The notes below the pieces were generated by a model. That model did not search any database. It saw nothing but the letters and a program-made list of their open reading frames with translations, and was not told the DNA's origin. Below, in pieces: positions 51,677-59,007 of a DNA stretch of 64,000 nucleotides; the stretch's first letter is position 1; each line of letters starts with the position of its first letter. A program made the position numbers and the translations under genes. This DNA is from Nitrososphaerota archaeon. GTDB lineage: Archaea > Thermoproteota > Nitrososphaeria_A > Caldarchaeales > Caldarchaeaceae. Location: positions 448,001-512,000 of the forward strand of contig JBEPYN010000001.1 in NCBI GenBank assembly GCA_041641305.1, written 5' to 3'.

Positions 51677-52211
51677 GGGTTGAGGCTATTTTCTGCATTA
51701 TTGCGAGCTTGAGTGCTTCGGTGCTTGTTTTCGCTTGGACGGATTTGTAAATTTTGTCGCTAATTCCGTAGAGTTCAGCGAACCGTGTTGGGTTAGGGTT
51801 TTTCGGCAAATCTATCTCACCGCCCTCAGCAAGAGACAGAACCGTCGCCGCCTTCTCCTTAACCTGTTCCAGAGAACCTCCCAGCACAAGAAAAACCGCC
51901 CTATCGCATCCGGGGTTAAGCCCAACCTTCTCGATGGCTTCGCTGATTTGTGTGGTCGCGGCAAGCCGTATCAACACCTCATTGGACAGAGTGCGCGCCC
52001 TCTGTCGGCCAGCCCGTATGGCCAAGACCGCGTTCACGAGAGCAGCGTCGAAAACGTCCCAGTCAAGTACAGAGTCTGCGTCAAAGACCTGCGCATCATC
52101 CACGCTGCCACGCACCCTCTCCACAAAATCTTGGACAGCTTTGTCACGCAGCCTAACGACGCCGGCGGCGAAAAACAAATCCAAAACTTTTCCCACCCTC
52201 ATCTCAGCCAC
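51669..52211 (-). CDS. cgi121: KEOPS complex subunit Cgi121
   Basis: QVFDAD, RARTLSNEVLIRLAATTQISEAIEKVG. Confidence 0.8.
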   Translation of the reverse strand: MAEMRVGKVLDLFFAAGVVRLRDKAVQDFVERVRGSVDDAQVFDADSVLDWDVFDAALVNAVLAIRAGRQRARTLSNEVLIRLAATTQISEAIEKVGLNPGCDRAVFLVLGGSLEQVKEKAATVLSLAEGGEIDLPKNPNPTRFAELYGISDKIYKSVQAKTSTEALKLAIMQKIASTLI

Positions 52212-52473
52212 CGTGGATGGAGGGTATCACCGTAACCACATCATCCTCGTCAACCACTGTGTCCAGCCAAGTTAGATACCGCACGTCAATACCGTTAACC
52301 AGTATAAGCAGCCCAGGCTGAGGCCGCCCAGCCTCATCCATAATCATCCGCCGAACCTCCTCACCAAACATCATAAAAACATCCCTCAACCGAATCGGCT
52401 CCTTCAACTCCATTTCGACGTACCTCTTCCCCACCACCGCCCTCAGAGGACCCAGCAACTCAACCCTCAACAC
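52204..52473 (-). CDS. MoaD/ThiS-like ubiquitin-like protein (SAMP)
   Basis: LRVELLGPLR, ILVNGIDV, C-terminal IPSIHGG; start trimmed from ORF track. Confidence 0.88.
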   Translation of the reverse strand: MLRVELLGPLRAVVGKRYVEMELKEPIRLRDVFMMFGEEVRRMIMDEAGRPQPGLLILVNGIDVRYLTWLDTVVDEDDVVTVIPSIHGG

Positions 52474-52545
52474 AGACCACTCAAGCAACGCTGTAAAAAA
52501 CTTATCAGAAGAAAATTTTTTAGATATTCCTCCAAACTCAAGGCC

Positions 52546-53049
52546 GTGAAGGTTCCGGAAGAACGTTTGAAGATATTCTTCGAGATGGAGGAAAAATTCA
52601 GGCAGAAAGATGCAGAATATTTCAGGACTCTGCTGAAGAGCGATGACTTCGTTATCCGCGCACGGGCCACATGTATTTTGGCTGAGATAGGTGGCAGAGA
52701 CTATATACCGGATCTCGCAGAGGTTCTGCTTCACGATGACAACCCCATTGTACGTCACGAGGCGGCGTACAGTCTTGGGCAGCTTGGCTACCGCGAAGCT
52801 ATTCCCTACCTAGTCGAATCCATGAAAAAAGACCTGCATCCCATAGTCCGCCATGAGTCAGCCATAGCCCTTGGGGTAATAGGTAGAACAGACCCTGTCC
52901 CAGACCTGCTCGAGGCTTTGAAGGACGCGGCTCCCGAGGTGGTGGACTCTGCCATCATAGCGCTGAGCAACATAGAGTTCTGCAGAAGGCTTTTCACACA
53001 ACCAGTGGGCGATGAGGCGGCGGAGTTCGCCCGCAAAACAGGAGGCTGA
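52546..53049 (+). CDS. HEAT-repeat protein resembling one half of deoxyhypusine hydroxylase
   Basis: IVRHEAAYSLGQ...IVRHESAIALGVIG...EVVDSAIIAL; HEAT fold confident, function inferred. Confidence 0.75.
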   Translation: MKVPEERLKIFFEMEEKFRQKDAEYFRTLLKSDDFVIRARATCILAEIGGRDYIPDLAEVLLHDDNPIVRHEAAYSLGQLGYREAIPYLVESMKKDLHPIVRHESAIALGVIGRTDPVPDLLEALKDAAPEVVDSAIIALSNIEFCRRLFTQPVGDEAAEFARKTGG

Positions 53050-58014: not shown

Positions 58015-58935
58015 CTACTCGAATTCCTCCAGAAGCGCCAGCACAAGCAGAGGCAGTGCAACCGTGGCATCCGTTTTCACGAAGACATGACGCCCCTTTG
58101 ACGAGATTTTATGCCATGTAATTGCTTCCTTTGGCCTCGCCCCGCTCAGGCTGCCGTCATATTCATCAGCCGTTGAGATGTAAACCGCTGTGTCAAGCCC
58201 CTCTCCACCGAACTGAGACCACCATAGAAGATGATGCTTCGATATTCCTCCACCAAGTATAAGCCCCGCTTTTCGGCGGCTACTCCACATCATCTCGTTG
58301 AGCAGGTCCTGGTCTCTTTCATACTGCAGCCTAATTCCCATACTTCTTCCACGAAGCCACATCTGATATCCAAAGGCGCCGTCAAAAATTCCCGGAACCA
58401 TGACGGGAACCCTGTGTCTATAACACCAGTAAAGCCATGAGTTTTCGGAGCCCAGCCTCTCCCCAACTCTCCACAAAACCTCATACACAGGAAGATCTGC
58501 TCCGGAGCCAAGCATGGTTACAAGGTCTGCGACCTCGCGCTCAACCACCAGACCATAGCTTGACTGGTCGATGTAGACGTTGCCGAGACGGTGGATGTTT
58601 TTCTCGGCCAACTCCCAGTCATCGGCGTCAAAGCTGCCAACCATGTACCGTGACCTTGTGCGGGCGATGTCGTGGTCCACGGCCCCGCACGTTGTAAACA
58701 CCAAGTCAAACCATTTTCTCCGCAGCATCTCCACAAGAACCCCGCGGAGACCTGTCGCCACGAGGTTGCCTGTAAAAGAGACCATCCTCAAACATTCTCG
58801 TTCGGATAACATGTCTCTGAGAAGCTGACATGCCTCAGCGAGATGAGCCCCCATGAACCCGCCCATCCTACCCATCATGCGCAGAAGCTCCGCCGCCGAA
58901 CACCCCTTCACCAGCTTCACATCCTCAACATACAT
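58015..58935 (-). CDS. dys: Deoxyhypusine synthase
   Basis: SFTGNLVATGLRG, IHRLGNV, ILGGGISKHH, DGSLSGARPKEAITWHK, DATVALP; start set at ATG 58935. Confidence 0.92.
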   Translation of the reverse strand: MYVEDVKLVKGCSAAELLRMMGRMGGFMGAHLAEACQLLRDMLSERECLRMVSFTGNLVATGLRGVLVEMLRRKWFDLVFTTCGAVDHDIARTRSRYMVGSFDADDWELAEKNIHRLGNVYIDQSSYGLVVEREVADLVTMLGSGADLPVYEVLWRVGERLGSENSWLYWCYRHRVPVMVPGIFDGAFGYQMWLRGRSMGIRLQYERDQDLLNEMMWSSRRKAGLILGGGISKHHLLWWSQFGGEGLDTAVYISTADEYDGSLSGARPKEAITWHKISSKGRHVFVKTDATVALPLLVLALLEEFE

Positions 58936-59007
58936 AGATGTATCCGCTGAATCGCCGGCTATAAACCCGCGAAACAATTAAGAAACCCCAATCACACAAC
59001 CGTTTAC

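Follow-up and report, generated by a model that had tools for sequence, protein, structure and literature searches.

The analysed stretch of DNA (64,000 nucleotides of a Nitrososphaerota archaeon, hereafter the window) encodes a half-size protein that is, with very high confidence, homologous to a single half of the eukaryotic deoxyhypusine hydroxylase (DOHH). The family to which it belongs (hereafter family A) probably acts as a homodimeric di-iron deoxyhypusine hydroxylase. By the definition of the DOHH family, the window protein is not a full member: it has four repeats and two His-Glu motifs, compared with eight repeats and four motifs with a loop in the single chain of DOHH. According to reviews and primary papers, archaea have no DOHH orthologue, and how archaeal hypusination is completed is described as unsolved (PMC5178350, PMC6105217).

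The half-size gene and its surroundings

The features discussed below are listed in Table 1. An earlier note on this DNA had described a 167-residue HEAT protein with two His-Glu pairs, H71-E72 and H103-E104, and the open reading frame and its translation agreed with that description, including the distance of 32 residues between the pairs and the motif contexts given for them. In the protein, four PBS-type HEAT repeats are preceded by an N-terminal helix and followed by a C-terminal tail. The F-A-x-x-T-G-G tail was found in all family-A proteins, and only the second unit of a fused relative (P0212, see below) keeps it. Neither this tail nor the extra N-terminal helix has a counterpart in DOHH.

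The gene is flanked on the left by a Urm1/SAMP-like gene, Cgi121, and Sua5, and on the right by CoxS, CoxM, and CoxL. A deoxyhypusine synthase (DHS) gene lies about 5 kb downstream, with the coxSML and aspartate kinase genes in between. The identification of this gene as dys (58015-58935) in the earlier note was correct as to the enzyme, while the end had been misplaced: the gene extends to 58977, and 58935 corresponds to an internal ATG. The window genome also contains aIF5A (loop SKPGKHGSAK) on another contig and two DHS genes in all, the second paralogue being located on another contig as well (G000 C2:239825-240721). No second copy or paralogue of the half-size gene was found in the window genome. 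Close orthologues of the gene carry the name Candidatus Caldarchaeum.

The Urm1/SAMP-like beta-grasp gene (52204-52494, minus strand), whose product has a GG end, is divergent from the HEAT gene. Its open reading frame was listed with 184 residues and overlaps the HEAT gene; the true start is probably near 52494, because only the last ca. 86 residues match ThiS/Urm1.

Table 1. Location of the half-size gene, its motifs, and related genes and loci.
Feature	Location	Strand	Description
Half-size DOHH-like gene (family A)	52546..53049	+	ORF and translation; 167 aa; GTG start
His71-Glu72, motif 1, context VRHEAAYSLGQ	52756..52761	+	Aligns with human H56-E57 and H207-E208
His103-Glu104, motif 2, context VRHESAIALG	52852..52857	+	Aligns with human H89-E90 and H240-E241
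C-terminal tail FARKTGG	53026..53046	+	F161, A162, T165, G166, G167 invariant in family A
Deoxyhypusine synthase (DHS)	58015..58977	-	Pfam DS E 9e-90; NCBIfam PRK01221 374.7 vs cut-off 350
P0212 island	L084:2857-9902		DHS, polyamine, IF5A-like genes; contig logan SRR21363124_14, 18 kb, GC ~40%
DPANN full-length DOHH-like locus	L085:8001-8849		GCA_964384165.1
DPANN full-length DOHH-like set			P0367, P0376, P0378, P0383, P0385, P0388, P0390, P0423

Homology to the halves of DOHH

When the window protein was searched as a single sequence against all PDB sequences, the top natural match was human DOHH (4d4z, E 2.5e-24). A profile built from 29 family-A members matched both halves of the same entry (E 7e-35). 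In these PDB searches, the next natural matches were Rpn2 (1e-12), YibA (2e-9), CpcE (5e-6), and MTH187 (1e-4). The window protein was also aligned by BLASTP with P0138, a genuine DOHH (E 4e-78 against 4d4z): identity was 36% with the N-half (E 2e-17) and 30% with the C-half (E 1e-11). In both alignments the His-Glu motifs were in register, as were the LGQ that follows motif 1 and the ALG that follows motif 2. In the reciprocal direction, a named yeast DOHH searched against the whole window genome retrieved the half-size gene as the best match (E 2.9e-10; next match, 0.005). The likeness to a DOHH half that had been noticed in the sequence was thus confirmed by the PDB search, the in-register alignments, the reciprocal search, and the structural fit described below.

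Each half of DOHH is characterised by strictly conserved His-Glu pairs in repeats 2 and 3, about 33 residues apart, and the pairs of the window protein align with those of both halves. The earlier note had left conservation among orthologues as a point that could overturn its proposal. All four residues of the two pairs, H71, E72, H103, and E104, as well as G78 and Q79, showed no variation among 29 orthologues of Caldarchaeales and Nitrosopumilaceae with 52-91% identity. The third Glu of the eukaryotic HEAGE/HEAAE motif is missing, as had been observed before; the window protein has I107 at this position, and the residue is also missing in full-length forms from DPANN archaea (see below).

Generic HEAT_PBS repeats had been named as a possible source of this resemblance, and such an origin was not supported. 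Among 2,589 similarly shaped repeats drawn from 233 long HEAT proteins that matched the family profile, six (approximately 0.2%) had His-Glu at these two positions, and five of the six belonged to one protein. The only generic protein in the sample with repeated His-Glu was P0317, an NTPase-HEAT protein of 1029 residues with five near-identical VRHEAAQALG repeats, which are the product of recent tandem amplification.

The reading that the window protein is an ordinary HEAT_PBS protein, resembling DOHH and carrying His-Glu pairs by chance or convergence, is consistent with two results. Pfam returned only the generic HEAT_2 (E 8e-25), HEAT_PBS, and HEAT models, apart from which only PBS-lyase-type NCBIfam models matched, and artificial consensus alphaRep proteins, alone among all PDB entries, scored above DOHH. 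However, the E-value of DOHH was more than 10 orders of magnitude below that of any other natural HEAT protein, and more than 20 orders below with the profile. Scores for the NCBIfam PBS-lyase/NblB models were 16-31 bits (ca. 25-31 bits for the PBS-lyase models) against cut-offs of 220-600, which places the protein below the curated thresholds for CpcE, CpcF, CpeY, and NblB. The rarity of His-Glu in generic repeats, the reciprocal best match with yeast DOHH, and the separation of all His-Glu families from generic HEAT proteins in the phylogenetic tree (support 100/97) also argue against this already disfavoured explanation, which we regard as highly improbable.

Some orthologues have already been given the name 'deoxyhypusine monooxygenase' by automatic annotation at JGI, and no discussion of orthologues so labelled was found in the literature searched.

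Structure models

The AlphaFold2 (AF2) monomer of the window protein (pLDDT 93, pTM 0.87) was predicted to consist of paired helices, with low pLDDT (62-68) in the C-terminal tail. Its fold is a PBS-type HEAT alpha-solenoid, as in DOHH. By Foldseek, the model matched one half of 4d4z_A with a query TM-score (TMq) of 0.71 and an rmsd of 2.9 A over 138 columns, whereas alphaRep solenoids deviated by 6-8 A.

An exhaustive profile search was dominated by giant multi-repeat HEAT proteins, and its useful yield was a single protein, P0212 (363 aa), which is composed of two full family-A units and carries four His-Glu motifs. Identity to thaumarchaeal half-size proteins is 55-62% for each unit, and P0212 was the only family-A relative with the eight-repeat, four-motif feature of DOHH. 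The model of P0212 (pLDDT 93, pTM 0.91) was folded with an alignment, A2, that included eukaryotic DOHHs. Against whole human DOHH, Foldseek gave TMq 0.73 and TMt 0.80, and VIA-align gave Z 30.9 and 3.1 A over 264 residues, compared with Z 17.5 at 14 A for the next entry; human DOHH was the sole PDB entry that matched the model globally. Because A2 held eukaryotic DOHHs and AF2 had been trained on 4D4Z, the DOHH-like packing of this model is not independent evidence. The predicted structure shows that P0212 is compatible with the DOHH fold and does not constitute independent proof of it.

P0212 is known from a single contig and has a signal-peptide-like N-terminus. A metagenome search for P0212 returned only two contigs, both of which end at the match, and no relatives were found in viral contigs.

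Active-site residues and proposed mechanism

In human DOHH, the di-iron centre is anchored by H56, H89, E90, H207, H240, and E241, and the deoxyhypusine side chain is bound by E57, E208, and conserved glycines (PMC9117371). According to these roles, each DOHH half contributes one His/His/Glu set. The archaeal half-size protein has exactly one such set, together with the substrate-side Glu and Gly. By alignment only, the substrate-side residues of DOHH (human E57/E208, and G214 with its N-half counterpart) correspond to the invariant E72 and G78. Two irons in each active unit and a peroxo-diiron(III) species are further characteristics of DOHH.

For family A, we infer homodimerisation, iron binding, substrate, and chemistry as follows. 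Two half-size copies would pair head to head, like the N- and C-halves of DOHH, and each would provide one His-Glu/His-Glu set, in which H71, H103, and E104 would ligate one iron. A non-haem di-iron site would then form at the interface of the two copies, and E72 and G78 of each copy may take the substrate amine. Activity would require a dimer, because the window protein has only two His-Glu motifs. That two units would act together is backed by the tandem fusion P0212, the predicted model of which corresponds to the whole DOHH fold.

Linkage to deoxyhypusine synthase

Synteny with DHS, aIF5A, Urm1-like, KEOPS, and Cox genes was compared across 80 + 8 loci. The arrangement of the window, with DHS across the cox and aspartate kinase genes, was kept only in the genus Caldarchaeum, so that the earlier description of the dys linkage as loose was appropriate. 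Linkage was absent in Nitrosopumilaceae, Nitrososphaera-like, and other lineages represented among these loci, and in three of the loci (L006-L008) a 2.3-kb insertion lies ahead of coxS. On these grounds, co-transcription with coxSML and adjacency to the Urm1-like gene were rejected as functional clues.

Two other loci, both independent of the window's own arrangement, support a connection with hypusine synthesis. One is that of archaeon HR01, a member of the window genome's family, where 76 bp separate the half-size gene from a divergently oriented DHS gene and another DHS gene lies alongside. The contig of P0212 contains a same-strand row of genes encoding DHS, a PLP-dependent decarboxylase (Orn_Arg_deC_N), CN_hydrolase, agmatine deiminase, and, as the last, P0212. 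As predicted from their sequences, the products of this row would together make putrescine-type polyamines and deoxyhypusine. The row is flanked by genes for two proteins with IF5A-like N-domains (P0476 and P0478), both above the Pfam cut-off, in which K-x-G-K-H/Q-G modified-Lys loops stand behind long acidic tails.

As side observations, genes for a TauD/GBBH-like dioxygenase and for cNMP-binding proteins were present upstream at the P0212 island. At the HR01 locus (L012:3982-7551), the two adjacent DHS paralogues by the half-size gene are followed by a SLOG/LOG-like gene and then by a ferritin-like gene.

A DOHH-type di-iron oxygenase acting on another modified protein or on a polyamine-like small molecule would be in line with the lack of a conserved DHS/aIF5A link in Nitrosopumilaceae, where the neighbours are peroxiredoxin-like, cupredoxin, and L15e genes, and with the fact that the IF5A-like N-domain proteins of the P0212 cluster are non-canonical and not canonical aIF5A. 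The N-terminal helix and TGG tail specific to family A also point in this direction, as does a second half-size paralogue in Nitrosopumilaceae (family B, below), which suggests functional diversification. On the other hand, both independent tight linkages are to DHS, the IF5A-like neighbours of P0212 have the loop that DHS modifies, and the DOHH substrate-side residues, the first-motif Glu and the LGQ glycine, are invariant. We consider a different substrate unlikely, and deoxyhypusine remains the preferred one.

Family B (165-182 aa) was found in Nitrosopumilaceae (L088-L092; G083, G250, G202, G044, G298), where it occurs in addition to family A in these ammonia oxidisers, and is absent from the window genome. 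Its members have a RWDAVW motif and two His-Glu motifs without LGQ. Family B may act as a heterodimer partner or as an oxygenase in its own right.

Distribution and relation to oxygen

A scan of the genome collection detected relatives in 457 species, the best 80 of which were all Nitrososphaerota. Across 400 genomes sampled from this phylum, scores were bimodal. Strong matches (>200 bits) were obtained in 55 of the 56 sampled genomes of family f5, which corresponds to Nitrosopumilaceae by named loci, patchily in the family of the window genome, in 2/15 genomes of its sister family, and in families f56 and f58 (three genomes together). Nitrosopumilus maritimus and Nitrososphaera viennensis carry the gene. 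Elsewhere in the phylum sample, only weak matches to HEAT proteins of about 830 aa were obtained.

The search of the control genome of Sulfolobus acidocaldarius with HEAT_2 and HEAT_PBS gave no match, and family A therefore cannot explain hypusine in Sulfolobales. Family A is not a universal archaeal enzyme, and the Sulfolobus hydroxylase must be something else. The earlier suggestion of a missing archaeal enzyme accordingly holds in part: among the genomes searched, family A was detected in Nitrososphaerota alone, and it is a candidate for this one archaeal group and not for archaea in general.

Within the order of the window genome, the haem-copper oxidase gene COX1 was present in all 11 gene-bearing genomes, and the half-size gene was found in none of the 30 genomes lacking COX1; these genomes are related, and the counts are not independent. 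Profiling against aerobic archaea, as had been called for, gave one result in favour, the confinement of the gene to COX1-bearing genomes of the order, and one against, its absence from 34 genomes with COX1. These account for most COX1-bearing Caldarchaeales and include 4 of the 11 other members of the genus. The only copy in one same-family genome is interrupted by TAG (G374:C30:15344-15652), which suggests a loss in progress. Since it is missing in 4/11 same-genus genomes and broken in one same-family genome, the half-size gene is dispensable. The COX1 pattern fits an O2-dependent yet dispensable step. In yeast, DHS alone is essential, and eIF5A with deoxyhypusine still works (PMC5178350).

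Dispensability within the genus is equally what might be expected of a non-catalytic HEAT adaptor or metal-binding protein of the DOHH lineage, for example one that binds aIF5A or DHS or handles iron; HEAT repeats are typical protein-binding scaffolds, and the HR01 copy has a ferritin-like gene nearby. Such a role is harder to reconcile with the invariance of all four His-Glu residues over roughly 50% sequence divergence, with the restriction of the gene to oxidase-bearing genomes, and with the recurrence of two-unit, DOHH-like fusions, and we judge it improbable, somewhat more so than a change of substrate. A catalytic role as a deoxyhypusine hydroxylase is preferred for family A.

DPANN forms and phylogeny

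In one search, many named eukaryotic DOHHs ranked right after the family's own members. The same search uncovered longer proteins in DPANN/Nanoarchaeota MAGs (Table 1); these have about 280 residues, four His-Glu motifs that do not vary, and a conserved P-Y-x-G end. One of the DPANN genes shares its contig with PCNA and gyrase B. They are rare: in a sample of 251 genomes from the DPANN phylum, one full-length copy and two short matches, one of them with stop codons, were detected.

A maximum-likelihood tree was calculated with single units as tips; its root is uncertain. Apart from the split between generic HEAT proteins and all His-Glu families given above, the N- and C-halves of eukaryotic DOHHs were sisters (95/93), as were the N- and C-halves of the DPANN proteins (100/99), and eukaryotes and DPANN grouped together (95/88). 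Family A formed a group that included both P0212 units (96/92). A single ancient duplication common to eukaryotes and DPANN was rejected: forcing the N-halves together cost 61.8 log-likelihood units (AU p 1e-4). The tree favours descent from a single-unit ancestor through three separate duplications, in eukaryotes, in DPANN archaea, and in P0212, a picture that concerted evolution between halves would mimic. The proposal that the half-size protein represents a pre-duplication form is compatible with this tree, and the phylogeny against the DOHH halves favours independent duplications.

Evolutionary reading and significance

Taking these results together, we tentatively propose, without setting it quite at even chance, that family A is the surviving single-unit homodimeric DOHH, that aerobic Nitrososphaerota make hypusine and not deoxyhypusine only, and that tandem duplication or fusion produced the two-domain enzyme on at least three occasions, once each in eukaryotes, a DPANN lineage, and the lineage of P0212. 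If this is true, eukaryotic DOHH would descend from an archaeal half-size gene. No report of hypusine or deoxyhypusine in Nitrososphaerota was found in the literature searched, nor did any paper there connect Thaumarchaeota, Nitrosopumilus, or Asgard with DOHH or hypusine.

Family A provides an easily expressed candidate for the ammonia-oxidising archaea, a large and ecologically dominant group, and for their thermophilic relatives. It is also a putative model, minimal and symmetric, for an unusual di-iron oxygenase built of HEAT repeats, and it bears on the origin of eukaryotic DOHH by duplication of a homodimeric unit.

Comparison with known systems

CpcE/CpcF, NblB, MTH187, E. coli YibA, and the artificial alphaRep proteins share the HEAT_PBS/HEAT_2 repeat type and the solenoid fold with family A, but they lack His-Glu motifs, and their solenoids are continuous instead of being divided into two four-repeat units that face each other. 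A functional analogue is found in EpmC/YfcM, which hydroxylates the modified Lys34 of bacterial EF-P in a last, dispensable step (PMC6105217); the comparison is by function only and concerns a dispensable hydroxylation of the lysine that is modified in IF5A/EF-P proteins.

The full-length proteins of DPANN/Nanoarchaeota (P0367, P0383, and relatives) are archaeal and have the same unit architecture and His-Glu motifs as family A. Unlike family A, they consist of two fused units, and their N-halves are most closely related to their C-halves, which points to a separate duplication or to concerted evolution.

Compared with eukaryotic DOHH (human, PDB 4D4Z/4D50; yeast Lia1; EC 1.14.99.29), the chain of family A is archaeal and half as long, has neither the interdomain loop nor the HEAxE Glu, and bears the extra conserved N-terminal helix and the invariant F-A-x-x-T-G-G tail. 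Common to both are the unit of four PBS-type HEAT repeats, the His-Glu pairs in repeats 2 and 3 at a distance of 32-33 residues, the LGQ after the first pair and the ALG after the second, a conserved Arg in repeat 1, and the co-occurrence with DHS and IF5A.
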